Source: Candidatus Micrarchaeota archaeon (lineage in GTDB: Archaea > Micrarchaeota > Micrarchaeia > Anstonellales > J096). From it: a stretch of 41,647 nucleotides of DNA. This document shows positions 6,851-37,219 of this stretch, one piece after another; position 1 is the first letter of the stretch, and the number at the start of each line of letters is the position of its first letter. The notes beneath the pieces were generated by a model. It worked only from the letters and a program-made list of their open reading frames with translations. It had not been told where the DNA came from and did not search any database. The DNA lies in assembly GCA_030550115.1 (NCBI GenBank), contig JAUQPY010000015.1, positions 1-41,647 on the forward strand. The letters run 5' to 3'. The translations under genes and the position numbers were made by a program.

Positions 6851-7318
6851 ATGGCTAGAAAAGAAATCAGGGCTCTTGTTGATGGAGGAGCTGCTAAACC
6901 AACACCTCCTTTAGGACCTGCATTGAGTGCTGCAAAGCTACCTGTACAGAAGATAATAGATGAGATAAATAAGAAAACTTCCTTCTTCAAAGGTATTAAA
7001 GTTCCTGTTATAATATACTATGAAGGTCAAAACTATGAAATAGAAGTAGGAATACCTCCAACTACAGAGTTGATAAAGAAAGAGGCAGGAGTGGAGAAAG
7101 GTGCTGGTAAACACGATACTCCTGTAGGTAATATATCTATGCAAAAACTAATAGAATTGGCTAAGAGTAGTATTGATAAATCTAATACAAACAGTGTGAG
7201 AAATAGGGTAAAAGAACTGGTAGGTACATGTCTGAGCATGGGGATAACTGTTGATGGGAAGAGCCCTAAAGATATTATGAAACAGATCGATCAGATGGAA
7301 GATGCTCATTTTAGCTAG
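6851..7318 (+). CDS. rpl11: 50S ribosomal protein uL11
   Basis: GGAAKPTPPLGPALSAAKLPVQKIIDEINKKT is the uL11 N-terminal domain signature. Confidence 0.95.
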   Translation: MARKEIRALVDGGAAKPTPPLGPALSAAKLPVQKIIDEINKKTSFFKGIKVPVIIYYEGQNYEIEVGIPPTTELIKKEAGVEKGAGKHDTPVGNISMQKLIELAKSSIDKSNTNSVRNRVKELVGTCLSMGITVDGKSPKDIMKQIDQMEDAHFS

Positions 7319-12151: not shown

Positions 12152-12194
12152 CTCTAGCCGGTTGGCTAGTGTGAGGGATATGGGTGATATAGAG
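12152..12194 (+). other. 5' strand of the 23S rRNA processing stem
   Basis: 12171..12194 pairs with 15064..15087 as 24 consecutive base pairs with one G-U. 12152..12165 pairs with 15091..15104 across an internal loop. This is the usual location of the archaeal bulge-helix-bulge cleavage site. Confidence 0.8.
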
Positions 12195-15063
12195 TTTGCT
12201 GCAATCCGCCTAGTGGATGGCTCGACTTCCAACACATCTCCCCGTGGCAAGCTGCGATAAGCCCAGGGTACCTGCATGCGAGGGTTGATCCTGGGATTGG
12301 GAGAAGTGCCTAGTCTTCGGACTAGGCCAGTTGACGCCGGGAATTGAAGCATCTTAGTACCGGCAGGAAGAGAAATCAAACGAGATGCGGGTAGTAAGGG
12401 CGACTGAACCCCGCACAGACCGTCCCGAATCCCCTACAGTAATGTAGGTGGAGAGGTGGGGGGGAGCACCCTACTCTTGACTCGAAGTTGGCTGGAATGC
12501 TACACCAAAGAGGGTGAGAGTCCCGTAGAGGTAGAGAGTAGGGGCGAACCAGAGGAGTAGCCTCCCATGATTGGGGGGTGAAGATGGGGGAACTATCCTC
12601 CAAGTCTAAACATAGTTGGAAGATCGATAGCGAATTAGTACCGCGAGGGAACGCTGAAAAGACCTCCGGGCAGGAGAGTGAAAAGATCCTGAAACTAGGC
12701 GGAGACAGGCAGTCAGGGCAGGAAAGGGTACTTGGGTGAAGCTGAGAGAGGCGACTCTCAAAGCCAACCCAAGGTCACTGTCCTGACATTCTTCTCGAAG
12801 CAAGAGCCAGGGAGTTCTGGGTAGTGGTGAGGCGAAAGCCTGAGCGAAAGCGAATGCCCGCAGTGATAAACGAGGGGCAGCCTCTTAACGGGGGTAAATC
12901 ACTATCCAGAGACCCGAAGCCCGTTGCGAACTAAGGGCGCCCAGGGTGAAGCCTATCTTACAGGTAGGTGAAGGCCCGCAACTAGTGCTGGTATATTCCG
13001 CTTAGGTGAGGTGCCCTTAGGGGTGATAGGCCAGTCGAGCCGGGCGATAGCGGGTTCCCTCCCAAATGTGTCTCAGCACAGCGTCACCGGAGAGAGCCTG
13101 AACGGTAGAGCACTGATTGAGGAAGCGGGGGAGAAATCCCTCGCCCCTCTATCAAACTCCGAATGTTCAGGCCTCGTAGATGGTGGCAGTGGGGCTCCTC
13201 GGGGTAAGCTTGAGGGCCTATTGCGGAACGACGCGACGTAGGGTTAAGGACCCTAAATGTGGGCTAAAAGTGAATCCAAAAGAGGGATTCTTTCATAGAC
13301 AGCTGGGACGTAGGCTTAGAAGCAGCCATCGTCTAAGCAACGCGTAAAAGCGGACCAGCCGAGAAAGGATCTCTCAAAAATGGACGGGGCTAAGCCCACT
13401 TCCGATACCCTACCGGTGTTCCTATGGAACACATCGAGTAGGAGGGTGTCCGGAGTGCTGAGAAGTAGGGCCGTGAGGTCCTATGGAGCGCTCTGGAATA
13501 AATATCCTGGCGACAGTAGCAGCAAACTCAGGTGAGAATCCTGAGGGGCTGATAGGGCAAGGTTTCCTTGGCAACGTTCATCAGCCAAGGGTTAGGCGGT
13601 CCTAAGGCGTATCCTAATGGGAATACGCTGAGTAGGGTAACGGGTTAATATTCCCGTCCTAGGTGGGTAGGTTTTAGCCTTCTCACTGACGCCTCGGGAT
13701 AGGAGGAGCCAGACCGGTCCAAGCACTGAAATCCCTGGAGTCTCGTAATGAGGAGAAAGGGATGAAAGTGTGATGGGGGAACTCCTTCGACTCCTAGGGC
13801 CCATGAAAAGGTGAGAAGGAACGATCCCACCTAACCGTACCGAGAACTGGTACAGGTGCCCTAGCTGAAAAGGCTCAGCCCTGCAGGGAGAACCCAGGTA
13901 AAGGAACTCGGCAAGTTAGCCCCGTAACTTCGGGAGAAGGGGTGCCTGGAATTGAGTAAATTCCAGGTCGCAGTGACAAGGGGGGAGCGACTGTTTACCA
14001 AAAACACAGGTCACTGCTAGGCCTAAAGGCTGTGTACAGTGGCCGACGCCTGCTCACTGCCAGTACCCGAAAGCTCCTTACAAGGAGAATAAGGGCTGGT
14101 AAAGAGCGGGGGTAACTCTGACCCTCTTAAGGTAGCGTAATACCTCGTCGCTTAATTGGCGACTTGCATGAATGGCGTCACGACTCCCCCACTGTCTCTA
14201 CCTGGGACCCTGTGAACTCACTTCCCGGTGAAGATGCCGGGGACTCCCAGTGGGAAACGAAGACTCCATGGAGCTTTACCGCAGCCAGATGTTTTGTCGT
14301 CGGCCTGGCTACAGAGCGTAAGTGGGAGCCGTCGAAGCTGCCTCTCCGGGGGCAGTGGAGGCAACGATGTAACACCACTTAGCTGGGCTGACGATGATTA
14401 CCTTCGGGGACAGCATCTGGTGGGCGGTTTGGCTGGGGCGGTACACCCACGAAAAGGTAACATGGGTGCCCAAAGGTCTGCTCAGACGGGTCAGAAATCC
14501 GTCGTAGAGGGATAAAGACAAATGCAGGCCTGACTTCTTCCCTAACAGCGTGGGAAGAAGAGGGGAAACCCGGGCTTAGCGAACAGTAATATCCTTGTAG
14601 TGGGGGATTACTCTGTCAGACAAGCTACCCTGGAGGTAACAGGCTCGTCGCGGGCGAGAGTACATATCGACCCCGCGGCTTGGTACATCGCTGTCGGCTT
14701 GGGTCATCCTGGCTGTGTAGGAGCAGCCAAGGGTCGGGTTGTTCATCCGTTAAAGACCCACATGAGCTGGGTTCAGTACGTCGCGAGACAGTACGGTAGT
14801 ATCTACTGGGAGTGTTGGCCTTTGAGGGGAAAGGACCACTAGTACGAGAGGAACATGGTCCTGGGGCCTCTGGTGTACCGGTTGTGAAATGCATTGCCGG
14901 GTAGCTACGCCCTAGAGGATAAGACCTGAAAGCATCTAAGGTCGAAGCCTCTCCCAAAACTAGAGGCCAAAGCCCGCCCATAGCAGATGGGTTTGATGGG
15001 GGGAAGGTGTAAGCTCCAAGGCTCTGCCGAGGAGTTCAGCCGATCCCTTCCAAAGGGCTAAAC
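12195..15063 (+). rRNA. rrl: 23S (large subunit) ribosomal RNA
   Basis: Conserved LSU blocks occur in the correct order. These include GGATGGCTCG...GCAAGCTGCGATAAGC, GAATTGAAGCATCTTAGTACCGGCAGGAAGAGAAATCAA and GACTGTTTACCAAAAACACAG. Further blocks are GACCCTCTTAAGGTAGCGTAATACCT, GGATAACAGGCT-like and AGTACGAGAGGAAC, with ...GAAAGCATCTAAG at the 3' end. It is GC-rich relative to the flanks. The ends are approximate (about +/-20 nt) and are taken as the inside of the processing stem. The length of about 2.87 kb leaves no room for a large intron. Confidence 0.95.
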
Positions 15064-15104
15064 CTCTATATCACCCATATCTCTCACAACCCAATCGGCT
15101 CGAG
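15064..15104 (+). other. 3' strand of the 23S rRNA processing stem
   Basis: Complement of 12152..12194 (see the 5' strand feature). It is followed by a T-rich tract (tatattttcacgttt). Confidence 0.8.
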
Positions 15105-15170: not shown

Positions 15171-16946
15171 ATGGCGCTATTCACTAGAGATGATCGAGTG
15201 TTAGTAATAAACAACAAACCAGACTATATCCAGAGAATTCTAGACTATGATTATATCATAGGCAGAGCACCTTCTGTTGTGGGGATAGTACATAATGATA
15301 ATGGAATGGAGAAGCTATTCTATGGTTCTAGAGAAATATTAATTCCTGTTTACAGTGATTTGAATTTAGCTCTAGATACTCTAAATCCAACAGTAGTTGT
15401 AAATCTAGCTTCATACAGATCTGCTAGAGCCCCATCTGAACTAGTACTAAAGCATCCAAGTGTTAGGGTGCTGGTGATAGTAGCCGAAGGCATACCAGAA
15501 AGAGATATGAAAGAGCTCATAAGAATTGCTAAAGATAATCAGAAGATCATCATAGGTCCTGCTACTTTTGGAGCAATTACAGTAGGAGCTCTGAGAGCAG
15601 GGGTTGTTGGAGGGGATTACAGTAATATCCTAAAGAGCAGATTATACTCTCCTGGTTCTGTTGGTGTTATTACTAGAAGTGGGGGATTGTTGAATGAGAT
15701 GTTTAGAATAATTGCTAGAAACAGTAATGGAGTGAGAGAAGGAGTTGCTATAGGAGGAGATGTATTCCCTGGCTCTACTATGTTAGAACATATTCTTAGA
15801 ATGGAACAGGATCCAGATATAAAACTGATAGTAGCTGTTAGTGAAATAGGGGGCAAGGAAGAGTATGAGATAGCTAGAATGGTTCAAGAGGGAAAGATTA
15901 GAAAACCTCTGATAATGTGGGTGGTTGGAATATCTGCAGAACTATTCCCTTGGAAAGTTCAATTTGGACATGCTGCAGCAAAAGCTAATACCAATATGGA
16001 AGGAGCTAGGGAGAAGATGAGAGTTTTAAGAGATGCGGGGGTTATTGTACCTGAAAGATTTGGAGATTTGGAGAATATAATAAGAGACATATCCGCTAAA
16101 TTAGGGTTATCTTCTCATGAATCCAAATACAACCCTTTGCCTATGGATTTCAAGAGAGCTGTGAATGAAAACATAGTTAGAAGACCTACCTCAATAGTAT
16201 CTAGCATATCTAAGGAGATTGATGGGGAAATTGCTTATAATGGTATAAAAGTATCTGATCTCATGGAGGGGGATATTACAGATGTAATAGGTTTGTTGTG
16301 GTACAAACGTAGATTATCTGATAGATTCAAGAAATTCCTTAATATGAGTATTATACTACTAGCAGATCATGGTCCAAATGTCTCTGGAGCTCATAACGCA
16401 ATAGTAGCCTCTAGAGCTGGAAAGGACATAGTAAGTTCTCTAGCTTCAGGAATCCTAACGATAGGACCTAGATTTGGGGGGGCTATAGATGATGCCATGA
16501 GGTATTTTTACGATGCAGTAAATAGAGGCATAACTCCTGTACAGTTTGTAGAGGAAATGAGAAAGAAAGGGATAAACATACCTGGAATAGGACACAGAGT
16601 CAAGTCGAAATACAACCCTGATAGGAGAGTGGAGATATTGAAAAGATTTGCTCAGGATAATTTGAAAATACGTAAGTATTTGAATTTTGCCATGGAGGTG
16701 GAGAGAGAGACTTTGAAAAAATCTGAGAGATTGATATTGAACGTAGATGGGGCTATAGCTGCTATTCTTCTGGATCTAATGGAAGAGGATGGTTTTAATG
16801 ATATTAAAGATATAGTTCAAATTGGATATGGTAATGCTATATTTATATTGGCCAGATCTATAGGTATTATAGGACATATTATCGATCAGAAACGATTGAA
16901 ACAACCGTTATATAGACATCCAGATGATGATGTATATTTAATCTAA
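15171..16946 (+). CDS. aclA: ATP-citrate lyase alpha subunit (CoA-binding/CoA-ligase domains plus citrate-synthase-like domain)
   Basis: Near-colinear motif match to the C-terminal half of eukaryotic ACLY. Shared segments include DYDY..., EILIPVY, IIAEGIPE, IIGPATFG, LYSPGSVGVITRSGGLLNE and GVAIGGDVFPGST. Also present are EIGGKEEYEI and the phosphohistidine motif VQFGHAAAKA. The citrate-synthase-like motifs ADHGPNVSGAHN and GIGHRVKS follow. Confidence 0.9.
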   Translation: MALFTRDDRVLVINNKPDYIQRILDYDYIIGRAPSVVGIVHNDNGMEKLFYGSREILIPVYSDLNLALDTLNPTVVVNLASYRSARAPSELVLKHPSVRVLVIVAEGIPERDMKELIRIAKDNQKIIIGPATFGAITVGALRAGVVGGDYSNILKSRLYSPGSVGVITRSGGLLNEMFRIIARNSNGVREGVAIGGDVFPGSTMLEHILRMEQDPDIKLIVAVSEIGGKEEYEIARMVQEGKIRKPLIMWVVGISAELFPWKVQFGHAAAKANTNMEGAREKMRVLRDAGVIVPERFGDLENIIRDISAKLGLSSHESKYNPLPMDFKRAVNENIVRRPTSIVSSISKEIDGEIAYNGIKVSDLMEGDITDVIGLLWYKRRLSDRFKKFLNMSIILLADHGPNVSGAHNAIVASRAGKDIVSSLASGILTIGPRFGGAIDDAMRYFYDAVNRGITPVQFVEEMRKKGINIPGIGHRVKSKYNPDRRVEILKRFAQDNLKIRKYLNFAMEVERETLKKSERLILNVDGAIAAILLDLMEEDGFNDIKDIVQIGYGNAIFILARSIGIIGHIIDQKRLKQPLYRHPDDDVYLI

Positions 16947-17444
16947 TCTCCTAGCTTTTCCCTCACTCACCATCCATTCAGCCTCCTCAGGTTCAATCTC
17001 AATAACCTCACCAACTTTGTAAGGACCTCTCTTATTACCAGAGATATCAAAATACTCCTGAATATCCTGTGTAATTTCCACCTTAACAGTCCTTTTCACA
17101 TCTAAGAATTTGCTCCGATACTCAGATATTAATTCCTTCATGGACTGGTAGAATCGATATTCTTCTTCCGTAAGATATTCTTTGAACAGTTCTCTATCGT
17201 TTAATACCATCATACCTATCTTAGCCATCCTAATACGAATTAATTTGGAAAAAGATTCATAGATTATCTGATATTGCCTATCATATACCACATCCATATC
17301 TCTGTATTTACTCAGCTCTTGGAGAATGTTCTGAGCTTGCTTATAAATAGTCTCATCTATTTTCTCCAAGCCCCTACTATTTTCCCTATCTATTAACTCA
17401 TGGAGCTTTATGATTAGATTCTTTATAACATTCTGATCTATCAT
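16938..17444 (-). CDS. GINS-like replication factor subunit (Gins51-type) candidate
   Basis: Helical N-terminal domain, then a C-terminal segment VKVEITQDIQEYFDISGNKRGPYKVGEVIEIEPEEAEWMVSEGKA. This fits the archaeal GINS B-domain pattern (V.vl.d.p.f.g.dg..ygp...GdVv.lp...a..Li..g.A). Motif-level only. Confidence 0.45.
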   Translation of the reverse strand: MIDQNVIKNLIIKLHELIDRENSRGLEKIDETIYKQAQNILQELSKYRDMDVVYDRQYQIIYESFSKLIRIRMAKIGMMVLNDRELFKEYLTEEEYRFYQSMKELISEYRSKFLDVKRTVKVEITQDIQEYFDISGNKRGPYKVGEVIEIEPEEAEWMVSEGKARRLD

Positions 17445-18709
17445 TTGCTTCGAGATGTATCTATTAATCTTTTCAATTCTTCCTGTAACAATCTCTTTTT
17501 ATTTTCCAACTCTTTCTGTTCCTCATCTATTTCCTTAACTCTCTGCTCTACATCTAATATATAATTCTCCAATTCACTTATATATTTATCCAAAATCTCT
17601 CTCTGAGCTTTAGATTTTATATTCTGGGCATTATTCTGCATTTCTAAGATATTTGCCTTTATAGTCTCTATCCTATTCAAGACCTCTTCCCTCTGTTGTT
17701 CCATACTAGCTATTTTCTGCTCATATTCAACACTCATCTTATGATATCCACTATATTTGTGATTGAGTTCATCCAGTTTAGAATTCAATTCATCTAACTT
17801 AGATTCAAGTTTAGAATATCTAGTATCCAATTTTGCCAGAGATGCTTCTAATGCTTCTATCTGAGCTTTCAAGCTTTCAGTTCTTGCTTCAAGATCTTTT
17901 TTCTGTTCAACTAATTTAGTTTTTTGTTCCTTCAGATCTTCAATATCCTCAAGTACAGATTCTATTTCTCTTAGATCAGATATATAAGCTTTCTTTATCT
18001 CCTTGTATAATGACTTTAGTTCTTCCAATCTAGTATTAAAATTACCAATATCGTTCTTATAGTTCTCAACCAAGCTTTTCATATTCTCCAAACTGCTAAT
18101 TACACTATCTAATTCCTGATCTATCCTGGGTACTGTGGTAGAGACATTATCAGATAGCCCAAGAAGATTTTCTTCTAAATCAATTATGAAATCACTTAGA
18201 TTGTTTATCACCTGATCACTCTCATTCTTTAGGAATTCTAATCTCTCTCTAATGATTTCTACCCTCTGCCTATCTAGATTCATAATTTCTCTCTTAAGCT
18301 GAATAATTCTCTTCAGCACATCAGAACTCTGCTCTCTTCTCACTTCTGCTTTGACCTCACTCTTTCTAGTCTCCTGTTTTGGCATTTCTTGAGGTTTATC
18401 CTGTTTACTCTCTTCCCCTTTCTGTTCAGTATCCTCCTCTTTTCGTCTCTTTCTCTTTTTCTCAGGTTCTTCTTGAGTAACCTGTTCTGGCATCTTTACA
18501 AATTTTATAAACGTACCTGATAATTTACTCTGAATCTTCACATACCCATTACTCTCCAGTATTAAAATCCACTCCTTAACCTTATCAACATTCTCATTCA
18601 AAAGATTTGCTAATTCCACTAACTCTAATGTTCCTCTATCTTTTAGTAAACTCAATAATTGATCAATTTTTGTATTTACATCAGTCATTTTACCTTTACA
18701 ACCTTCCAA
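17441..18709 (-). CDS. winged-helix plus long coiled-coil protein, function unknown
   Basis: N-terminal wHTH-like segment (LSLLKDRGTLELVELANLLNENVDKVKEWILILESNGYVKI), a K/E-rich linker, and about 280 aa of heptad-rich coiled coil including a tandem SKLDELN duplication. ATGA overlap with the GINS-like gene, and its 5' end overlaps the uL16 gene. Confidence 0.6.
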   Translation of the reverse strand: MEGCKGKMTDVNTKIDQLLSLLKDRGTLELVELANLLNENVDKVKEWILILESNGYVKIQSKLSGTFIKFVKMPEQVTQEEPEKKRKRRKEEDTEQKGEESKQDKPQEMPKQETRKSEVKAEVRREQSSDVLKRIIQLKREIMNLDRQRVEIIRERLEFLKNESDQVINNLSDFIIDLEENLLGLSDNVSTTVPRIDQELDSVISSLENMKSLVENYKNDIGNFNTRLEELKSLYKEIKKAYISDLREIESVLEDIEDLKEQKTKLVEQKKDLEARTESLKAQIEALEASLAKLDTRYSKLESKLDELNSKLDELNHKYSGYHKMSVEYEQKIASMEQQREEVLNRIETIKANILEMQNNAQNIKSKAQREILDKYISELENYILDVEQRVKEIDEEQKELENKKRLLQEELKRLIDTSRSK

Positions 18710-19671: not shown

Positions 19672-19877
19672 ACCAATCTCACCACAAGATCTAATATTAT
19701 AGATAGTATTGTTATAACTATACCAAAACTCCCAACTATAAAGGTTATGAAAATTATTTGATTGAATAGGGATGTAACTTGCTGTTGCTCAGGTTTCCTA
19801 ACTTTCCTGTATATTGATATCATACTATCTACTTCACGATGGATAGTATTCTGAATATCTCTAAAGCTAAAATTCAT
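19668..19877 (-). CDS. secE: preprotein translocase subunit SecE (Sec61 gamma)
   Basis: 69 aa with a single C-terminal TM after VRKPEQQQV. It sits in the conserved ftsZ-secE-spt5 arrangement, with ATGA overlaps on both sides. Confidence 0.6.
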   Translation of the reverse strand: MNFSFRDIQNTIHREVDSMISIYRKVRKPEQQQVTSLFNQIIFITFIVGSFGIVITILSIILDLVVRLV

Positions 19878-20965
19878 ATCTTTTCTATACCCAACACGTC
19901 TTTTATGTTCTGATTCTGTTCGTCATAGAAATCATTTGGTAAAGTGACCCCTGCTAATACTACTAACACTCTTATAGATGACTTCTTCATCTCAGGCTCT
20001 ACTCTAGCTCCATATATTATATGTGCATTTGGACTTATTCTCTTCTTAGTCTCATCAACTATGTAATTAACTTCTTGTAGCATAAGATCCTCTCCTCCTA
20101 TTATGTTTATCAGAGCTCTATCTGCTGTAGATATATCTATATCCAACAGAGGATTGGATAGAGCAGTTTCTATTGCAAGCTTTGCTCTCTCCTCTTTGCT
20201 ACCTTCTAATGCAGACTCACCTATAGCTATAGCAGCATAACCACCATTCTTAAGAACAGTAGTTAGATCTGCGAAATCGACGTTTATCAATCCTGCTTTT
20301 ACGGACATCTCCGCTATGGTTTTAACAGATCTAGCTAACACTTCATCAGCTATCTTGAATGCTTTATCCAGGGGTAAATCTTTTGCAATATCTAATAATC
20401 TATCATTCTTTATTATGATCAAGGTATCTACATTCTGCTTCAATTTTTTTATACCAGAAATAGCATTATCCATTCTAACTTTCCCCTCAGATTGGAATGG
20501 TAATGTTACTACTCCGACAGTCAGAGCACCCACATCCTGTTTTGCTATTTTAGCTATTACAGGTAGAGCCCCTGTACCAGTACCACCACCCATACCACAT
20601 GTGAGAAATACAAGATCAGCTCCATTAAGAACTTCTTTGACCTTTGCAGCAGTTTCCTGTGCAGCTTTCTCCCCACACTCAGGATTGCTACCACATCCTC
20701 TCCCTTTAGTTAGCTGCTGACCTATAAGGATTTTCCTGTGAGCTTTGATCTTTATTAGATGCTTTGCATCTGTATTTGCGGCCACCAGAGTTACATTAGA
20801 TGCCGGTCTGAATTCAAATAATCTATTTATTGTGTTCGAACCCCCTCCTCCTGCACCTACCACAAAAATTCTCTCCTGTTCTTGCTCTATGAGCTTCAGA
20901 ATCTCCTCATCATCCTTTGATATTACTTCCTGATCAAGTATTAATTCCTCTTTTTCATCAGCCAT
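19874..20965 (-). CDS. ftsZ: cell division GTPase FtsZ
   Basis: GAGGGGSNTINRL and the tubulin signature GMGGGTGTGALPVIAKIAK. The ATG at 20965 is preceded by GGTGA (20971..20975) with a 5-nt spacer. The ORF-track start at 20974 is a GTG. Confidence 0.95.
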   Translation of the reverse strand: MADEKEELILDQEVISKDDEEILKLIEQEQERIFVVGAGGGGSNTINRLFEFRPASNVTLVAANTDAKHLIKIKAHRKILIGQQLTKGRGCGSNPECGEKAAQETAAKVKEVLNGADLVFLTCGMGGGTGTGALPVIAKIAKQDVGALTVGVVTLPFQSEGKVRMDNAISGIKKLKQNVDTLIIIKNDRLLDIAKDLPLDKAFKIADEVLARSVKTIAEMSVKAGLINVDFADLTTVLKNGGYAAIAIGESALEGSKEERAKLAIETALSNPLLDIDISTADRALINIIGGEDLMLQEVNYIVDETKKRISPNAHIIYGARVEPEMKKSSIRVLVVLAGVTLPNDFYDEQNQNIKDVLGIEKI

Positions 20966-21000
20966 TCTATTCACCTTCTAATAGTTATTGATGGGTTATA

Positions 21001-21008
21001 TTTTAAAA
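21001..21008 (-). promoter_or_regulatory. TATA-box-like element for the ftsZ-secE-spt5-rpl10e string
   Basis: The palindromic ttttaaaa lies upstream of the SD-led ftsZ start. Confidence 0.4.
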
Positions 21009-21046
21009 GTTAATGTATCATGATTTCTATGATAGAACAGTAAAAA

Positions 21047-21054
21047 TTTTAAAA
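21047..21054 (+). promoter_or_regulatory. TATA-box-like element for the SLT-like gene pair
   Basis: ttttaaaa lies 29 nt upstream of the ATG at 21076. Confidence 0.45.
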
Positions 21055-21075
21055 CACTTTTAGTGATATATAATT

Positions 21076-22743
21076 ATGATTGAATCCATACCATTTCTCG
21101 AACAGAATTCTGTGCTAGACAAGTTAAAACTACTTAATCCAACTGTAGAGAGAAAAGTTAGAGAAGAAATAAAAAAGGTCTTGGACGGTCAGGTAGATAG
21201 AGTTAGATTGAATTTAGGTTCCGATAGTATTAGAAGATTGAACGAATGGATTCAGCAGAATGATCTTCCACTGGAGGTTATAAGAACAGGATTTAAATAT
21301 CCGAATGGTACTGAAGATATTATAGTAAGACGAACAGGTAAGGGAAAAATTCCGACTGAATCCAAAGAGAGTACTATAGAATCAATTAATTCTCTAGTTG
21401 GATCGCTGAGCACTACACAGAATGTCAGAGAAACTGTAAGATCTGCTCTATTAAAGCTAGTTCTTGGTAGAGATGACAGTGTAACTCTCAATTTAAATGA
21501 GAGTAATGCAAGTAAGATCCAAGAATGGGCAAAGAAGAATGGTTATAATACTGCTATTGTTAGGAGATATTCAAATGGAACTGTTGATCTACTGATATCC
21601 ACAGGAGAGATTCAAACCTCTAAACATGCAGCGTCAAAGAATAAAATTCCAAAATCATCATTTGAACTACCAAGAGTTTTGAGTTCGAACTGGGATAATA
21701 TATACGCTGGTGGTCTCAGATGGGCTTATACCTATTTATCTCTATACCATTCTGATAACGATTCCTTATTAAAATTCTACAATGGACTCAGTGAAAATGA
21801 TCAGATCAAGTTCTTAGCCTATCTTTTGGGGAGATTCTATTCAAATTATCCTAAACTTGCAAGCCAATCTCCAGAATTATGGAATGAAAATGTCAGAGAA
21901 CAATTTAGAAAGTACATCTCTAATCTAGATATGGACGTAATAATAGAGCAGTTCAACACCCATTTAACCAGAGCTAGAAGGCAGGCTAACATGGTTGTAG
22001 AGCAGATACAACAAAACTTTAGAGCCAGAGGTGCCAATCTGGAAGCTCTAATAGGAGAAAAAGGCATGAGAGAGCTACAGGAATCATTAGAATACATGTT
22101 CTTTGAATTTAAGTTCAAGGACGATGATGTAGAGAGACTTGCCCAAGGAATCTCCTATTCCAACTTTAGTTATGTTTATGATAAGTTAATTGAACTTAGG
22201 GGTAAAGGATATAGACATTCCCCTAAGAAAAATATCAGTGATCAGGAATTAGCTAGAATCGCTCTTTCTGTTATAATTACAGATAAATTCTTTGGAGTGG
22301 ATTATAGATTATTATTAGCTATTATAGGACAAGAGACCAATTTTGATGAATCTGCTTACGGAAGATCGGGTGTTGGACTAACCCAGCAGACCAGAATGGG
22401 TTGGATACAGTACAGTATAAAGCTTCCTACGTATTATGAAAACTATTTAAAGAGGGTAAAGGGAATCGATGTTGATTACAATGTACCTATGATACACAGA
22501 TTGTATTTAGCTGATTTTAATACTCCTAACATTGATGAGGGTCATACGTTATTACAAGTATTAGCAGGGGCGTTAACTATAATAGGAAAAGCTACTGAGC
22601 AAGGAATATCTAATGTAAGCAACATGAAAGGTAGATCTAAGGAATTGTATATATTAGGAGTTGCATATAATGGTCATCCTGATCTTGATCTTCGACATAA
22701 TTATGGGAGAGGAATAATAAGTAGTAAGTTCTGGGAGCTGTAA
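21076..22743 (+). CDS. lytic transglycosylase (SLT/lysozyme-like) domain protein with duplicated novel N-terminal module
   Basis: The C-terminal domain has the ordered SLT motifs IIGQETNF (catalytic Glu), GVGLTQQT (GLxQ) and AYNGHP (AYNxG). The N-terminus has two copies of a module of about 70 aa. No signal peptide or TM segment. Confidence 0.7.
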   Translation: MIESIPFLEQNSVLDKLKLLNPTVERKVREEIKKVLDGQVDRVRLNLGSDSIRRLNEWIQQNDLPLEVIRTGFKYPNGTEDIIVRRTGKGKIPTESKESTIESINSLVGSLSTTQNVRETVRSALLKLVLGRDDSVTLNLNESNASKIQEWAKKNGYNTAIVRRYSNGTVDLLISTGEIQTSKHAASKNKIPKSSFELPRVLSSNWDNIYAGGLRWAYTYLSLYHSDNDSLLKFYNGLSENDQIKFLAYLLGRFYSNYPKLASQSPELWNENVREQFRKYISNLDMDVIIEQFNTHLTRARRQANMVVEQIQQNFRARGANLEALIGEKGMRELQESLEYMFFEFKFKDDDVERLAQGISYSNFSYVYDKLIELRGKGYRHSPKKNISDQELARIALSVIITDKFFGVDYRLLLAIIGQETNFDESAYGRSGVGLTQQTRMGWIQYSIKLPTYYENYLKRVKGIDVDYNVPMIHRLYLADFNTPNIDEGHTLLQVLAGALTIIGKATEQGISNVSNMKGRSKELYILGVAYNGHPDLDLRHNYGRGIISSKFWEL

Positions 22744-23700
22744 ATGATAACACAGGTAGATCTGGAGACAGTAGTTGATAATCTTCAGAAGAATGGAGAG
22801 GTTGAATTACCTTCAAATATACATCCTCAGAACATAATTGAAGTTCTAAAACAGGAGTATGGAATAGAAGCGAGAGCTGAGATTGTTGAAAATAATGGGG
22901 AACAGAGAGTAAAGATAATCGTAGATAGTTTATCCTATAATAGAGCAGAAACTCAAGAATATCTTGAATATAGAGCAAATGAATGGGATAGAGCTCCCAA
23001 ATCTTTTTCTATATATGAAGTCAGAGATAACCTAGAGAGATTAGCAAGAGGAGAATTGAATAAATATACAATCACTGTTAGGGAATTTGAATCAAATGAA
23101 TTATTACACGTATTATTCGAGAATAAGGATAGATTTGATATAAGGATAAGAAAGGAATCTGAATCAGAATTAATAACTATAACAGTCCAGCCCAAAGATA
23201 ATCGACAGTTCCCACCTCAACAGCCCTCTGACCAGAAGCCAGAATATAAAAATATGGATAGATTACCAATTGTTGAAGCTCATAGAAACATATTCTACAC
23301 ATATGCAGGTAAGAAGATATATCCGAATCTTCTATTACCTCTCACATATGACTACTTAAATCTCTATCACTCTAAGAATCAGAATTTTTTGAGGTTCTTT
23401 AATACACTCGATGATGACACCAAAATGCTATTCTTAAGCTATATTGGAGGAATGTTTATTATGGAATATGCACGGCGTAATGGAAGAATATCCCCAAAAC
23501 TTCTAAGAGTGGAAGAACAGGAACATAGATTAGCACTGGCTCAATTCGTCCAGAGGCTTAACATAGATGCTCATATTAATAGTTTCAGTAACAGACTTAA
23601 AAGAGCTCAAAATGATGTTGATATGATTTTAGAAAAAATATATTCAGTCTCAGGAGATAGTTTAGAGAGAATGGTAGGGAAAATGGAATTCAACATCTAA
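22744..23700 (+). CDS. paralogue of the N-terminal and middle regions of 21076..22743 (no catalytic domain in this reading frame)
   Basis: Same duplicated N-terminal module and the same helical middle region (YDYLNLYHSKNQNFLRFFNTL versus YTYLSLYHSDNDSLLKFYNGL). It starts directly after the stop of the upstream gene and ends where the paralogue continues into its SLT domain. Confidence 0.6.
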   Translation: MITQVDLETVVDNLQKNGEVELPSNIHPQNIIEVLKQEYGIEARAEIVENNGEQRVKIIVDSLSYNRAETQEYLEYRANEWDRAPKSFSIYEVRDNLERLARGELNKYTITVREFESNELLHVLFENKDRFDIRIRKESESELITITVQPKDNRQFPPQQPSDQKPEYKNMDRLPIVEAHRNIFYTYAGKKIYPNLLLPLTYDYLNLYHSKNQNFLRFFNTLDDDTKMLFLSYIGGMFIMEYARRNGRISPKLLRVEEQEHRLALAQFVQRLNIDAHINSFSNRLKRAQNDVDMILEKIYSVSGDSLERMVGKMEFNI

Positions 23701-23717
23701 GATTTGGACTAATTACT

Positions 23718-24359
23718 ATGTTTATGGAATTTCAGTTCAATCAATCTCACCTTATGGATTCTATTAAACATTTTAAGTGGGGTAATGTGCTAGATACTAT
23801 AGATCTTATGAAATTTCTGGCTAATCAAGGTCATAGGCATGCTCCATCTAGGGAATTAGATCAGAAGCAGATAGCATTACATGCAATATCTGCACATTTA
23901 GTTGGTAACATTATGAGAGTAAATCCTGGATTGTTACTAGCTACTATAGCCCAGGAATCCAATTTCAGAGTTCATGTTCACAGTCTATATGGTAGGGGAG
24001 CTAGTCAGCAAACAGATCAGGGAGGGATACATACCCACTTTAATCCATCATTATATAATACACATTTTAAGAAGTATGGTGTTGATGCCACTTTTCTGAC
24101 AATCATAATAAACAGTTCTATGTATGCCGATTACATCAGAAATATACCTAGTAATTTCGAGGGAAATATATTACTGCAATACTATTTTGCATCTATAACA
24201 TATATTGGTAAAGCACGTAGATTCAACGTTGATCTTTGGAATGTTTCAGATACATATACTATAAGGAAATTAGCTGAAGATTATAATGGGGGTCCTGAAA
24301 AAGTGAAATATGGCCTAGATGTCGCTAATAGCCCGTACATTAGATTTTCTAAGAAATAG
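23718..24359 (+). CDS. SLT/lysozyme-like domain protein (C-terminal part of the split paralogue)
   Basis: TIAQESNF (Glu-Ser), a degenerate GASQQT and DYNGGP occur in the same order as in 21076..22743. It lies in a different frame from 22744..23700, 17 nt downstream. It could be a separate polypeptide or a pseudogene fragment. Confidence 0.55.
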   Translation: MFMEFQFNQSHLMDSIKHFKWGNVLDTIDLMKFLANQGHRHAPSRELDQKQIALHAISAHLVGNIMRVNPGLLLATIAQESNFRVHVHSLYGRGASQQTDQGGIHTHFNPSLYNTHFKKYGVDATFLTIIINSSMYADYIRNIPSNFEGNILLQYYFASITYIGKARRFNVDLWNVSDTYTIRKLAEDYNGGPEKVKYGLDVANSPYIRFSKK

Positions 24360-25820: not shown

Positions 25821-26981
25821 ATGGATACTTTTGTAAATGAGTTTTTAGGAGCGACAAGAGACAGATTCTGGAGAACTAAGTTTATGGAAATATACGATAG
25901 ATTAGATGAAACTTCAAAACAGAAGCTTCATAAGGTTATGAAATACTTGGTTGATAATAAAATAAAATTCGATCATATGGAACCTAATAAATTGTTAGAA
26001 TTTGCTGTTGTTGATAGTGATGGTCTGATAAAGTATCTGAGATTCTCACAATTCTATTCCAAGTTTGATCCTATTCTAGAGCGAAGCTTTTTCAGAGATG
26101 TAGTATTAAGAGAGATGATAATAAGTACTTTAGAGATTTGGGAGGCATATCTTAAGGATACTACAACTAGAGATAGTTTGGATTTGAGTTATGATTTCTC
26201 AAAGATTGTTGATAGCATCGTCTCAGGCTATGGTAAGGATCATGATCTAACTTCTGCCATGAATCTCTTTTGGTATGTTAATAGAAAAATACGAGATATA
26301 CCTCCAAACATAAATTTGAGAATATTAACATATATATTATCATACAAACCAAAGATAGAGAGTGTTATTGAAAATATATATACCACTCCGGTGGAGCTGA
26401 GACCATATATGATTAGAAAACTAATATTATGGACAGACACACCTAAGGAATACGAGACAAAAATGCAGAGACTGCAAAATTTGTTTGATCTGAACAGATA
26501 TAATAACATCAAAAGAATATATGATGTAGTGTTGAAAGGAGAGATTGATAAGCGAGTTTTAGCAAGTATAGAAGGAAAAGATACATATGTTTACGAGCTA
26601 AAAATATTGTTAAGCAAGTATACTAATGACCCTGTTGAAGCTATGCTAAATGTCCTTGATAAAACCAAGAAAGATGTAGATTTGAAAATTTTCAAAATCA
26701 AGCTGTATTATAAATTGGATTTGCGGGAATTGGAGTATAAGCTTCGAACTCTCAGTAGATCTGGGAGATATAAATTAGATCCAGAGGTACTTCTAGATGA
26801 GACTTTACTGTTTGATAAAATTCACAGTTTCAGTAGAATATTCAAGATGCTGTTCAAAAAGAGTAGAAAAGACATAGAAGATGTGATTAATAGAAAAATC
26901 ACATATGGGGAACTGATATCAAGATCTGGTGGAAATCTAAATAATAATATGAATAAATTTCAACTATTATATAGATTTTAA
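25821..26981 (+). CDS. hypothetical all-helical protein (orphan)
   Basis: 386-aa ORF with canonical promoter spacing. I recognise no motif. Confidence 0.5.
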   Translation: MDTFVNEFLGATRDRFWRTKFMEIYDRLDETSKQKLHKVMKYLVDNKIKFDHMEPNKLLEFAVVDSDGLIKYLRFSQFYSKFDPILERSFFRDVVLREMIISTLEIWEAYLKDTTTRDSLDLSYDFSKIVDSIVSGYGKDHDLTSAMNLFWYVNRKIRDIPPNINLRILTYILSYKPKIESVIENIYTTPVELRPYMIRKLILWTDTPKEYETKMQRLQNLFDLNRYNNIKRIYDVVLKGEIDKRVLASIEGKDTYVYELKILLSKYTNDPVEAMLNVLDKTKKDVDLKIFKIKLYYKLDLRELEYKLRTLSRSGRYKLDPEVLLDETLLFDKIHSFSRIFKMLFKKSRKDIEDVINRKITYGELISRSGGNLNNNMNKFQLLYRF

Positions 26982-31100: not shown

Positions 31101-32387
31101 CTATTCCCCACCTCCTCCATCACTATCTGCATCTCCGCTATCTCCCACATCAGATACTTCTCCATCCCCAATTTCATGATGTTCAGATGAAATCATATTT
31201 GTTTGAATATTATTTATCATTTCTATCAATTTCTTACGATCAATTTTACCATAATTTTTCTCATGAGGTATCTGGAGCTTGGTTAAATCTTCTAAAATAC
31301 GTTTTAGAGTTTCCTTCAAAGTACTCAGGTCAGTAACTAATAAATACACATTTGGAATAACATATGGTGCATACTGGATATTAGGTATAAATACATAATA
31401 TGGATTAATTTCCAATATTCCCTTATTCCTCATATCAGATACTATCAATCCTATAGCTGGTAGTCTCCTGAATTGCTTAAACATATCCATATATTCTTCT
31501 AGAGCTTCCCTCCAACCTCTAATATATACAATAGAATCAAGTTTATCGTCATCATTCGATTCCTTACGTAATCCTGGATATGATCTTATAGTTATCCTAT
31601 CTTCAGAATCAGAATAACTCATATTCTGTATTTTAATGAGATGGTCAAGATATTCCAGAAATGCACCATTTATATGATTATGAATGCCTCCGACCCTATC
31701 CTTATCCAATACTCTTGTCCTGTATTCCTCTTTAAATTTTGATAATTCACCAGCAGAACTTGCCTCTACCAGTTCGTGAATAGTATCTACATCAAAAATG
31801 CCTAGTGTATGTCTTTTAGGTCGCTCCTTTCTAATTTGCTTCCTTCTCTTACCAGTAACTACCCTATTAACTCTATATAGCTCAAAATCCTCCGAGCCAT
31901 ACTCTTGCATAGAGAGAATATGGTAATGAGTATTCCCTGTAAGATCGGGCTCTCGGTGTTCTAATCTAAATCCAAGTATAATAAAGGCTCTACTTAGCTC
32001 ATGCATGAGACCCATCCTACCAGATATAAATCTATCATTAGTAGCAAAATCAATGCATTCTAACAGTCCTGGTACATTTTCTAATCTAATTCCCGACATA
32101 GGATCAGGTAATTCTGCGGATAATAAATAGAATCTAGGGTAGACATGTCTAGGTCCGGAGATCGTTCTAAGCTGACCTATTGGTTTAAGAGAAACTGCAT
32201 AATCTAGTCGGGTGCTCAAACCATATCTCATCTGTATCTGAAGTTTGTACCTTCTCTTACCCACTCTAAGAGCATCTCCACCCAGATCTATAGAGGTGGA
32301 TCTAGTAACGATACTTCTGCTATTATTATATAACACTACATTATCATCCGCATATATATCTGGAAATCTTTTTTGAATCTGAACCAT
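31101..32387 (-). CDS. hypothetical protein with acidic Gly/Asp/Ser-rich C-terminal tail (orphan)
   Basis: 428-aa ORF lying 21 nt downstream of rpoD on the same strand. It has an internal basic patch (GKRRKQIRKERPKRH) and the tail GDGEVSDVGDSGDADSDGGGGE. I recognise no catalytic or family motif. Confidence 0.55.
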   Translation of the reverse strand: MVQIQKRFPDIYADDNVVLYNNSRSIVTRSTSIDLGGDALRVGKRRYKLQIQMRYGLSTRLDYAVSLKPIGQLRTISGPRHVYPRFYLLSAELPDPMSGIRLENVPGLLECIDFATNDRFISGRMGLMHELSRAFIILGFRLEHREPDLTGNTHYHILSMQEYGSEDFELYRVNRVVTGKRRKQIRKERPKRHTLGIFDVDTIHELVEASSAGELSKFKEEYRTRVLDKDRVGGIHNHINGAFLEYLDHLIKIQNMSYSDSEDRITIRSYPGLRKESNDDDKLDSIVYIRGWREALEEYMDMFKQFRRLPAIGLIVSDMRNKGILEINPYYVFIPNIQYAPYVIPNVYLLVTDLSTLKETLKRILEDLTKLQIPHEKNYGKIDRKKLIEMINNIQTNMISSEHHEIGDGEVSDVGDSGDADSDGGGGE

Positions 32388-34500: not shown

Positions 34501-35571
34501 TTATATATTCAATCCTCCAAACAGAGAATTGATAAGATTGATGAAGATATATAGGAGCAAATATCCAATTCCTAGTGTAATCACAAGATTCTTATAGAAT
34601 TCACTCTTGCGACTTTCAGAATTAGATATTATCTTTGATGTGAATAGAGATGTGACAAAAATCGATAATACTGCAAAATATAGAAATGCATCCTTGCTTA
34701 TCGATGGAACTGAGAGTTGTATGTTCAATGGTAGTAATCCAGGACTAATATTCATATCACCTATCTGTGCAAAGGTTTTGTATAAAACCTCTATCAACTT
34801 TAGTGATATTGCATATAGGAGCGGCATTCCAAAAACAGATGCTATGAATATGAAAGATCGGTAGGTTGTCAGACTTGTTGAGATCTCATCCTTATAATTC
34901 TGAATCTCTCTTATGTCTAGAGCTAATTTCTCTATTATATCCGCTAATCTTGCTCCTGTTTTGATACCTTCTACTATAATAATAAAACTCCTCCTAACAA
35001 TCACAGAGTCAAAATCCTCACTCAGTTTCAGTATCGCCTGATCTATGGGAACACCTGAATAGTATTCTTTGACTCTTGCACGAACTAGTTTGGAGAAATA
35101 TCCATACTCCTCTTTTGCTGCATCTAGCATGGCCTGATCAATTATATTTCCGCTTCTGATACTAGCTGCCAGATTCATTAGAAATTCGGGTAATACCCTT
35201 TCAGATTCCCGACGTACCATATCCCCTTTCAAATCTACATAACCAGATATTATTAGATAGAATAATATATATAAGAGTACTCCGTATATAAGAGTTCCTG
35301 AGAAAATAATTATAGTATCTCTAGTTATAACAAATCTATCTTCATTAAACTGAATAGTTATATCTTTAATCCCAAGTTTTCTGAAAACTTCCCCCACATC
35401 ATTACTAGCCAATATAAACCCTATTATAAGTGATAGAAATGCTAGTAATACTAAAGATCCTGCAATAAATTCTCCGGACAGAGATATGTTAGCGTATTTT
35501 AATTTCCTATCCCATTCATATACATATGGCCTGGGCAAGATCTTACTAAACAGTTCCATTACCATATTCAT
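34501..35571 (-). CDS. type II secretion system F-domain membrane protein (TadC/FlaJ-like, second half)
   Basis: T2SS-F cytoplasmic helical domain (LPEFLMNLAASIRSGNIIDQAMLDAAKEE...IVEGIKTGARLADIIEKLA) flanked by TM segments. Confidence 0.7.
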   Translation of the reverse strand: MNMVMELFSKILPRPYVYEWDRKLKYANISLSGEFIAGSLVLLAFLSLIIGFILASNDVGEVFRKLGIKDITIQFNEDRFVITRDTIIIFSGTLIYGVLLYILFYLIISGYVDLKGDMVRRESERVLPEFLMNLAASIRSGNIIDQAMLDAAKEEYGYFSKLVRARVKEYYSGVPIDQAILKLSEDFDSVIVRRSFIIIVEGIKTGARLADIIEKLALDIREIQNYKDEISTSLTTYRSFIFIASVFGMPLLYAISLKLIEVLYKTFAQIGDMNISPGLLPLNIQLSVPSISKDAFLYFAVLSIFVTSLFTSKIISNSESRKSEFYKNLVITLGIGYLLLYIFINLINSLFGGLNI

Positions 35572-36415: not shown

Positions 36416-37219
36416 TCATTTATTCTGCAAGTATTTCTGAATTATGTTATCCGGAACCCCTTTCTGCTTTAGATAGTAATATTTAGCTCTCTGGATAGCT
36501 TCCTCTTCAGAAATCTGTTTGAGAGAATATTTCTTGAACATCTCTGGCTCGAATTTAGCTAAATACAACATAAGGGATGAATTACTCATTCTTTCTAAAG
36601 TATCAAATATAGGACGGTATGGTTCAAAATTCATTGTTGATAGGGTATGTTGCTCTTTCGGTTGTTCAGGCTTCTGATCAACAGCTCTAGCCTTCAATAT
36701 CTTCTGTACCACATCTCCATCTCCCCCAAGCTTCATCACAACATATTCTGCCAGATCTCTAGGGTCCATATTGCTCTTATAATTTTTCAGTTTTTTAATC
36801 CTCTCTACTATCTGTTGCTTCTTAGAACTTAGATTTTCAATCCTATAGAGATTAGATAGTTTTATGAGCTCACTATCCACATCATTTTTCAACCTATCAT
36901 ATTCTTGGAGGTATATATCTATATCCATCTGTTGTTCCTGAACTTTAGGTGATGGAGTATCTACTATTTTTTGCTCCAACTTTTCCCATTCTCGTTCCAC
37001 GTTTGCCTTATCTTTAACCTCACTATCCTTGGGTTCGTCTTTTATCTCATCAGTTTTGATAGGCTCTTTTACAACAATCACAGAACCTGATAGGGATACT
37101 AATTTCCAGAAAGACTTTAGATCAGCGTCATATAAGTCTTGCTCAGTTATTCTGGTATTCGATCCAACTATTTTAGCATATCGATCTACATATACTGCAG
37201 TCTTGAAAAAATCACTCAT
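36416..37219 (-). CDS. hypothetical K/E-rich helical protein embedded in the pilus-like operon
   Basis: The ATG at 37219 (MSDFFKT...) overlaps the ATPase stop by 8 nt. It has no TM segment, no Walker motifs and no resemblance to FlaH that I can see. Confidence 0.5.
   Translation of the reverse strand: MSDFFKTAVYVDRYAKIVGSNTRITEQDLYDADLKSFWKLVSLSGSVIVVKEPIKTDEIKDEPKDSEVKDKANVEREWEKLEQKIVDTPSPKVQEQQMDIDIYLQEYDRLKNDVDSELIKLSNLYRIENLSSKKQQIVERIKKLKNYKSNMDPRDLAEYVVMKLGGDGDVVQKILKARAVDQKPEQPKEQHTLSTMNFEPYRPIFDTLERMSNSSLMLYLAKFEPEMFKKYSLKQISEEEAIQRAKYYYLKQKGVPDNIIQKYLQNK

Follow-up and report, generated by a model that had tools for sequence, protein, structure and literature searches.

To our knowledge, murein and chitin are the only substrates of the GH23 enzymes characterised so far. 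Some SLT domains get to their substrate without a classical signal peptide. Among archaea, peptidoglycan hydrolases that kill bacteria have been described, and a recognisable signal peptide is present in only 32% of them (PMC12352652). SLT-domain proteins are also found in other DPANN archaea, the Woese- and Pacearchaeota, where they are very large and extracellular (PMC8204110, PMC10936187). How DPANN archaea attach to the envelopes of their partners or open them is largely obscure, and very few candidate enzymes are available in Micrarchaeota. Here we describe a tandem pair of genes in a 41,647-nucleotide contig of a Candidatus Micrarchaeota archaeon (JAUQPY010000015.1 of assembly GCA_030550115.1, forward strand; this whole stretch is called the window below). 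As judged from sequence profiles and a structural model, the C-terminal ~170 amino acids (aa) of the encoded proteins very probably form a lysozyme-like domain of the GH23/SLT superfamily that has diverged strongly (within GH23, sequence does not separate lytic transglycosylases from hydrolytic lysozymes or chitinases). The pair is laid out as follows:

21076..22743, plus strand: copy 1, open reading frame (ORF) 1 of the ORF list, 555 aa; two N-terminal modules (N-modules), a helical middle domain and a GH23/SLT-like domain
22744..24359, plus strand: copy 2, a single gene of 538 aa in relatives, ORF2 plus ORF3 in the window
22744..23700, plus strand: ORF2, 318 aa, first part of copy 2
23718..24359, plus strand: ORF3, 213 aa, second part of copy 2, with the frame open from 23661

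The locus had been described before from the DNA sequence alone (the sequence-only reading). A check against the sequence confirmed the ORF coordinates, the quoted peptides and both Glu codons given there. In protein alignments ORF2 was 31% identical to aa 214-328 of ORF1 (E 1e-15), and ORF3 was 31% identical to aa 341-536 (E 1e-21). This similarity is far above chance, and the two copies are tandem paralogues.

The following features were assigned in the C-terminal parts of the two proteins:

22228..22740, plus strand: predicted GH23/SLT lysozyme-like catalytic domain of copy 1, aa 385-555 (profile, hhalign, AlphaFold2 and Foldseek)
22333..22335, plus strand: codon (GAG) of the putative catalytic Glu420 of copy 1, in QETNF; invariant in 29/29 relatives
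23847..24356, plus strand: predicted GH23/SLT-like domain of copy 2, aa ~369-538 of the database protein P0006; aligns to the ORF1 domain with E 1e-21
23955..23957, plus strand: codon (GAA) of the putative catalytic Glu of copy 2, in QESNF

When a family profile of the C-terminal 171 residues was compared with the PDB, MltC was matched with E-values of 5.1e-6 and 9.2e-5, and MltE with an E-value of 5e-3. The best 13 of 15 matches were all GH23 proteins (MltC, MltE, a GH23 chitinolytic enzyme and EtgA), and the motifs E-S, GLMQ and AYNG were in register; the GH23 chitinolytic enzyme (E 0.17-0.2), EtgA and phiKZ gp144 were among the weaker matches. Comparison with Escherichia coli MltE by hhalign gave a probability of 85.9% and an E-value of 5.3e-6. 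In the profile and hhalign alignments Glu420 stood in register with the catalytic Glu of MltC, MltE and Slt70, and the AYNG of the family profile was aligned with AYNGG of MltC. An AlphaFold2 model of the domain was predicted with a mean local confidence (pLDDT) of 88.2 and a predicted template modelling (TM) score of 0.87. In a Foldseek search of the PDB with this model, the top 50 matches were all GH23 proteins (MltE, MltC, MltF, Slt70, Ralstonia GH23 chitinase, ostrich g-lysozyme), mostly with probabilities of 0.97-1.00 and with TM-scores of 0.44-0.57. A match to Pfam SLT (PF01464, cut-off 21.3 bits) at E<0.01 was found for 7 of the 29 family members; P0029 scored 34.0 bits and P0022 21.2 bits, so that the window proteins are tied to the Pfam threshold only transitively, via P0029. 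Profile and structure searches had been set beforehand as the test that could refute the lysozyme-like assignment of the sequence-only reading, and both placed the domain in that fold.

Conservation was examined in an alignment of 29 relatives with a mean column identity of 18%. Invariant columns were E420, Q437, K505, Y531 and N532, whereas G434, G533 and Y543 were conserved in at least 90% of the sequences. The catalytic Glu proposed by the sequence-only reading is thus kept in every relative aligned. The conserved columns are the signature positions E-S/T, G-L-x-Q and A-Y-N-G(+Y) of family-1 lytic transglycosylases, and Y543 would be equivalent to Tyr192 of MltE. Lys505 (22588..22590), located on the helix between motifs II and III and invariant in 29/29 members, is outside the canonical SLT signature. 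Motif I, where a hydrophobic helix ends in the catalytic Glu plus Ser/Thr, reads QE(T/S)NF in the two copies. Motif II is GVGLTQQT in copy 1 and GRGASQQT in copy 2, and several relatives have the canonical GLMQ or G.MQ. The earlier description of this motif as degenerate in copy 2 was overstated, because copy 2 keeps both the Gly (at least 90% conserved) and the invariant Gln. The predicted catalytic residues are complete in both copies, and on this evidence the predicted active site is maintained.

In the sequence-only reading ORF2 and ORF3 were treated as a pair, a view that did not survive comparison with relatives. Restoring one base near 23680-23690 joined the two frames in register with ORF1. 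The fused reconstruction was ~100% identical to P0006 (538 aa) over 100% coverage, two junction residues being different (ME in the reconstruction, NG in P0006). Six related assemblies with 99.7-99.9% DNA identity to the window over 5.6-17.6 kb located the lesion:

23680..23683, plus strand: A4 run, A5 in all six related assemblies; 1-nt deletion that splits copy 2

At 23677..23686 the window has GGGAAAATGG, whereas 6/6 related assemblies have GGGAAAAATGG, and all six encode an intact 538-aa copy 2. Since the six assemblies carry the A5 run and the intact protein, the split is peculiar to the assembly of the window: ORF2 and ORF3 are one gene, broken by loss of one nucleotide in the run. Its cause could be an error of sequencing or assembly, or else a variant of the strain in which copy 2 is genuinely inactivated; the split does not belong to the system itself. 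Programmed frameshifting and two separate genes are excluded by the A5 run and the single intact ORF of the six assemblies; programmed frameshifting is also contradicted by the site, which has no X-XXY-YYZ heptamer in the zero frame.

The closest proteins in the databases are annotated as 'hypothetical protein' and come from metagenome-assembled genomes of Candidatus Anstonellales and Micrarchaeota. Orthologues of copy 1 were found at 99%, 88% and 50% identity. A profile search of 1.84 billion cluster representatives yielded 27 proteins at E <= 1e-3, and a further protein search with the family alignment added no new members. Scanning GTDB (one genome per species) with a 6-sequence alignment detected three loci, all in Micrarchaeota; four further contexts were archaeal and one more member was named Micrarchaeota. 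The family is very small and lineage-restricted, with a Micrarchaeota or archaeal context for every member whose origin was checked. Against Pfam, NCBIfam, PHROGs and PADLOC the window proteins gave no match at threshold. Together with the small number of representatives and their uninformative names, this agrees with the earlier statement that the family was undescribed. An origin from a mobile element, a phage or a defence system was considered and rejected: the PHROGs and PADLOC searches were empty, the GC content is that of the surroundings and the chromosomal synteny is conserved.

Selection was estimated as the ratio of nonsynonymous to synonymous substitution rates (omega) between the window species and the lineage with 88% identity. 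Omega was 0.127 for copy 1 and 0.160 for copy 2, and 0.11 and 0.09, respectively, for their catalytic domains. From the values for the whole genes it follows that both paralogues are functional genes under purifying selection, evolving at the rate of accessory genes. For comparison, omega was 0.13 for the neighbouring MFS gene, 0.17 for a 386-aa ORF, 0.010 for ftsZ and 0.015 for EF-2. The possibility that copy 2 is a decaying pseudogene is excluded by its omega, in particular that of its catalytic domain, and by the intact gene in three lineages. In a rough neighbour-joining tree copy 1 grouped with the single-copy relatives to the exclusion of the copy-2 clade, indicating that either the duplication predates the single-copy lineages or copy 2 was accelerated.

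The genes and the spacer that border the pair are:

19874..20974, minus strand: ftsZ, divergent from copy 1
20975..21075, no strand: spacer between ftsZ and copy 1, 101 nt, holding the TATA-like AAAATTTTAAAA
24349..25638, minus strand: MFS transporter gene, convergent with copy 2, the 3' ends overlapping by 11 nt

The divergent orientation relative to ftsZ, noted already in the sequence-only reading, was confirmed. It is shared, with spacers of 98-111 nt, by the tandem pairs of three lineages (that of the window and those with 88% and 50% identity; loci L001-L008). In a more distant Micrarchaeon (33% identity, L009) there is a single copy; downstream of it the MFS, HAD, EF-2 and eRF1 genes are the same, and upstream are SecD/SecF, not ftsZ. 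The TATA-like A/T-rich element of the spacer (21043..21054, plus strand), about 22-33 nt 5' of the ORF1 ATG, is a candidate promoter. Bacterial promoter and terminator models gave the same counts as in shuffled sequences; these models are bacterial and the organism is an archaeon. The stop codon of ORF1 (TAA, 22741..22743) immediately precedes the ATG of copy 2, and GGGAG is found 8 nt before this ATG, an arrangement consistent with co-transcription and coupled translation. We moderately favour the view that the two paralogous genes form one operon and encode multidomain proteins specific to Micrarchaeota, whose C-terminal GH23/SLT domain is strongly divergent yet has its catalytic residues complete.

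Upstream of the catalytic domain, three further units were delimited in copy 1:

21115..21333, plus strand: N-module 1, aa 14-86; in the model a HEAT/armadillo (ARM)-like helix followed by beta-alpha-beta-beta
21367..21600, plus strand: N-module 2, aa 98-175; signature LNLN..NA..i.eW
21688..22227, plus strand: helical middle domain, aa 205-384; signatures F..FN.L and GLxYFFxE

The N-modules result from an internal duplication (aa 1-84 versus ~104-178, 31% identity, E 3e-10). In the full-length model of ORF1 (pLDDT 77) each was predicted as a helix followed by beta-alpha-beta-beta, and about a dozen family members have the signature 'LNLN..NA..i.eW...G' in one or two copies. The only solved structure matched was a designed armadillo repeat, which was aligned to the leading helix with an E-value, summed over repeats, of 8.8e-5. 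The HEAT/armadillo-like leading helices are at 21115..21190 and 21367..21470 (ORF1 aa 14-38 and 98-132). In searches of the PDB and BFVD with the full-length model, the N-modules gave generic alpha/beta matches only (TusA/SirA-like 3hz7, LAGLIDADG; E > 0.06). Pfam matches to POTRA2_Toc75 (E 0.04) and, for one member, TusA (E 0.009) were weak and were judged to be noise. In relatives of another architecture (P0015, P0018, P0023 and P0025), which are anchored by a transmembrane segment, genuine HEAT repeats occupy the corresponding place at the N-terminus, and a HEAT-like N-terminus may have been ancestral to both architectures. The middle domain is conserved in 22 family members and was modelled with a pLDDT of 85-97 over aa 280-384; no relative was found among PDB sequences or in the U and L domains of Slt70. 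It always stands beside the catalytic domain and is probably part of the working unit, and the N-terminal modules of HEAT-like helix plus beta-alpha-beta-beta probably serve in binding or targeting. The sequence-only reading had ascribed one three-part architecture to both copies. Its claims of paralogy, of a shared middle and C-terminal domain and of a repeated N-module in copy 1 hold. In copy 2 the two-module N-terminus was not detectable: hhalign of the N-module profile with the first ~180 aa of copy 2 gave an E-value of 0.044 and a probability of 1%.

The hydropathy of the two proteins agrees with the earlier observation that they lack a signal peptide and transmembrane segments. The highest Kyte-Doolittle mean over 19 residues was 1.44 for ORF1 and 1.07 for copy 2, as compared with 2.92 for the neighbouring MFS protein, and in both copies the maximum was inside the catalytic helix. 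An in-frame N-terminal extension of ORF1 or copy 2 is impossible. Six distant relatives (P0015, P0016, P0018, P0019, P0023 and P0025) differ in having a hydrophobic segment (19-residue mean 1.9-2.8) directly before the same middle plus SLT unit. In several of them the segment is preceded by HEAT repeats, which would be cytoplasmic; that of P0019 serves as an anchor at the very N-terminus, and its leader carries positive charges. The simplest topology predicted for these six proteins has the catalytic unit outside the membrane. The anchor in front of the same module in these six is the one, indirect, indication that the family would act outside the cytoplasm; for the window proteins themselves, we consider the chances of extracytoplasmic action to be evenly balanced.

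If the domain works as its relatives do, the general acid would be the conserved Glu that closes the 'LAIIxQE(S/T)NF' helix, and the groove would bind an N-acetylated sugar through G-x-x-Q, Y-N-G and the Tyr downstream of them. Beta-1,4 bonds next to an N-acetylated hexosamine would then be cleaved in a glycan strand of the N-acetylmuramic acid/N-acetylglucosamine (GlcNAc) type. Taken together, the data make a real catalytic activity probable. Because the characterised GH23 enzymes known to us all cut murein or chitin, the murein of neighbouring bacteria would be the best-precedented substrate. We put bacterial murein forward as the target tentatively, with a chitin-like or host-envelope glycan as the alternative. 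The site of action would most likely be outside the cytoplasm and would be reached by neither Sec nor Tat.

A number of results weigh against this interpretation. The window proteins themselves missed the Pfam SLT threshold (ORF1 13.9 bits, E 0.04; copy 2 no match), and searches of PDB sequences with ORF1 (phmmer) and with a 6-sequence profile were empty. The hhalign match to Slt70 was weak (14.7%), even though the Glu was in register. The Foldseek E-values of the domain model were marginal (0.009-0.2), with TM-scores of ~0.5 and root-mean-square deviations (rmsd) of 5-8 Å. With the full-length model no lysozyme was present among the top 50 PDB matches, and nothing significant was found in the PDB and BFVD, one phage SLT protein being at rank 18. 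As regards location, the ~13 family members with N-modules have no signal peptide, transmembrane segment, lipobox or Tat motif, and a cytoplasmic location would be the default reading of such sequences. No secretion, injection or holin gene adjoins the pair, and the contexts of the relatives are heterogeneous. Finally, the Micrarchaeota hosts on record are murein-free archaea (PMC12892359), so that the partner may lack the canonical substrate.

The sub-threshold SLT scores and the marginal Foldseek E-values would also be expected if the motifs had arisen by chance, or if the domain were a degenerate module for glycan binding or structure. Such a non-enzymatic role is scarcely credible: four independent lines (Pfam matches of relatives, PDB profile, Foldseek and hhalign) converge on GH23, and the residues that are invariant at 18% mean identity are the catalytic and sugar-binding ones, the signature of a maintained active site. 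The missing export signals in all members of the N-module type raise another alternative, salvage in the cytoplasm, in which the pair would degrade imported sugars resembling muropeptides or chito-oligosaccharides, perhaps taken up via the MFS permease as in AmpG-type recycling. The MFS gene is indeed a conserved downstream neighbour, even in the single-copy relative at 33% identity. However, it is convergent rather than operonic, and its linkage is probably plain conserved gene order because the HAD, EF-2 and eRF1 genes beyond it are equally syntenic. In addition, the MFS protein matches no specific NCBIfam family, leaving an AmpG-like partner unsupported, the characterised GH23 enzymes all act on polymers outside the cytoplasm, and the membrane-anchored relatives point outward. 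Salvage is therefore distinctly unlikely.

Two further proposals would have the enzymes act on a glycan of archaeal origin. The divergent arrangement with ftsZ in 3/3 lineages that have the tandem pair, and the presence of SecD/SecF, also envelope-related, upstream of the single-copy relative, could indicate that the Micrarchaeon trims its own glycan layer in FtsZ-driven division, like bacterial septal lytic transglycosylases. This is very improbable, as no wall of murein or of a beta-1,4 N-acetylhexosamine polymer is known in this archaeal group and no synthesis genes for such walls are present within the window. Furthermore, the adjacency to ftsZ is gone in the P0009 genome and in more distant relatives, the proteins carry no export signal, and with an omega tenfold that of ftsZ the pair does not resemble a core division gene. 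The sequence-only reading preferred an enzyme for host penetration: at a contact site the pair would cut a non-murein, GlcNAc-containing glycan of the host (S-layer glycan, chitobiose-type core or glycocalyx) for attachment or for a cytoplasmic bridge. In its favour, purifying selection maintains both ~550-aa paralogues in a compact part of the genome, and dispensable genes would hardly find space if the organism is a member of the ultra-reduced Anstonellales genus of PMC12892359. All family members checked were from Micrarchaeota or archaeal contexts, the anchored relatives imply an outward-facing module, and a type-IV-pilus-like assembly pair (T2SSF, T2SSE) is 10-14 kb downstream. GH23 also includes a chitinase, and the model fits the Ralstonia GH23 chitinase (target-normalised TM-score 0.55-0.57, rmsd 5.1) at least as well as murein enzymes. 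On the other hand, the organism has no host on record, glycans of archaeal envelopes are not known as substrates of any GH23 enzyme, neither an export signal nor a linked delivery apparatus is present, and the pilus genes do not adjoin the pair and are not linked to it in those loci of relatives that were read. We regard host penetration as rather doubtful, although the 3.3 kb kept for the pair in what would be an ultra-reduced lineage suggest a role central to the lifestyle and keep a host-envelope target in play. Its most novel form, in which a co-translated GH23-like pair, perhaps as a heterodimer, would leave the cell independently of Sec and Tat via the N-modules and would cut a non-murein GlcNAc glycan of an archaeal host at 80 °C or above, thereby opening the way for a cell-cell bridge, is unlikely.

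The window is a piece of a low-GC (~34%) archaeal chromosome, and the GC content of the pair matches the surroundings. Two tRNA genes are present. A 23S rRNA gene (12186..15072, plus strand) is solitary, 16S and 5S rRNA being without matches throughout the window; its GC content is ~47-52% as against ~34% around it, as is typical of thermophiles. Close homologues, GC content and rRNA composition point to a place for the organism within the hyperthermophilic, ultra-reduced Anstonellales, of which a described genus has genomes of 0.33-0.77 Mbp with a GC content of ~34% (PMC12892359). The following neighbouring genes were also recorded:

7302..8864, plus strand: large ORF, 520 aa, no Pfam match
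15171..16946, plus strand: 591-aa protein with CoA-ligase and citrate-synthase domains (fusion of ATP-citrate-lyase/citryl-CoA type; Pfam matches on the identical gene in L001), notable in a genome that appears strongly reduced
16938..17444: GINS-like gene
17441..18709, minus strand: 422-aa coiled-coil protein with weak SMC/Rad50/EzrA-like matches
25821..26981, plus strand: 386-aa ORF, no match in Pfam, NCBIfam or PADLOC; kept in close relatives, missing from the L009 locus
31101..32387, minus strand: large ORF, 428 aa, no match in Pfam or NCBIfam
34501..35571, minus strand: T2SSF-like membrane protein, type-IV-pilus/archaellum-type assembly gene
37212..38690, minus strand: T2SSE-family ATPase, type-IV-pilus/archaellum-type assembly gene

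The coiled-coil gene is located between the GINS-like gene and the gene of ribosomal protein L10e/L16, in the same conserved block as ftsZ, and its product may be a division or segregation factor. Another T2SSE ATPase gene is ~5 kb away from P0017, a distant member of the family (L010 652..2385). A link of the T2SSF and T2SSE genes to export or host contact of the pair is possible.

The kind of enzyme is known: it is SLT/GH23, SLT domains have already been reported in DPANN archaea, and the family of the window is a variant of this known kind. What is new is a family of Micrarchaeota or archaeal context that escapes curated thresholds and has two accessory modules, of a fold family without known match, with alternative variants of HEAT repeats plus membrane anchor. 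New also are the conserved tandem duplication adjoining ftsZ and the consistent absence of export signals. It follows that surveys of archaeal cell-wall hydrolases based on Pfam thresholds overlook at least one whole family. The pair is small, conserved and selectively maintained and has a recognisable catalytic centre, making it testable which glycan is cut, and at which site, by a host-dependent archaeon that has no murein. If the substrate is ordinary bacterial murein, the pair would be a modest extension of the archaeal anti-bacterial hydrolases. Should export and a host glycan apply, it would be the first GH23 enzyme acting on an archaeal envelope and the first molecular handle on how Micrarchaeota breach their hosts.

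Of the known systems, MltE/EmtA, MltC and Slt70 (PF01464, GH23) gave the best sequence and fold matches. The likeness lies in the lysozyme-like all-helical fold, here predicted, in the Glu-Ser/Thr at the end of a hydrophobic helix, and in G-L-x-Q, A-Y-N-G and a Tyr beyond them, which are ordered and spaced alike. Unlike these bacterial family-1 enzymes the window proteins are archaeal, are below the Pfam threshold and have neither signal peptide nor lipobox. They also have accessory domains of their own (a middle domain unlike the U and L domains of Slt70, and novel N-modules), the additional invariant K505, and a motif II of the form G-x-G-(L/A)-(T/S)-Q-Q-T. The Ralstonia sp. A-471 GH23 chitinase and the goose-type lysozymes have the same fold. 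The chitinase gave the best target-normalised TM-score and one of the lowest rmsd values (5.1 Å), and it shows that GH23 substrates are not limited to murein; sequence similarity to this group is, however, weaker (E 0.17-0.2), and hydrolytic GH23 enzymes use additional acidic residues.

Phage phiKZ gp144 and EtgA, which is associated with a type III secretion system, were matched weakly by the profile and are SLT enzymes that have no signal peptide and are delivered by a machine. The window pair differs from them in being unflanked by phage, injection or secretion genes and in its conserved synteny among housekeeping genes. With the archaeal peptidoglycan hydrolases the pair would share action on a polymer that the producer lacks, and, with most of them, the lack of a recognised signal peptide. 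Those enzymes were identified by pairs of Pfam catalytic and peptidoglycan-binding domains, mostly in Halobacteria and methanogens (PMC12352652), whereas the window pair has no known peptidoglycan-binding domain. The SLT proteins of Woese- and Pacearchaeota (fam00969 in PMC8204110; also PMC10936187) are likewise carried by DPANN archaea, although murein is not made by archaea, and have been read as tools for interaction between cells. They are described as up to ~3000 aa long and extracellular, and standard annotation recognises them. These descriptions set apart the family of the window, whose members are ~450-560 aa long (538-555 aa for the pair), have no export signal and are annotated as 'hypothetical'.

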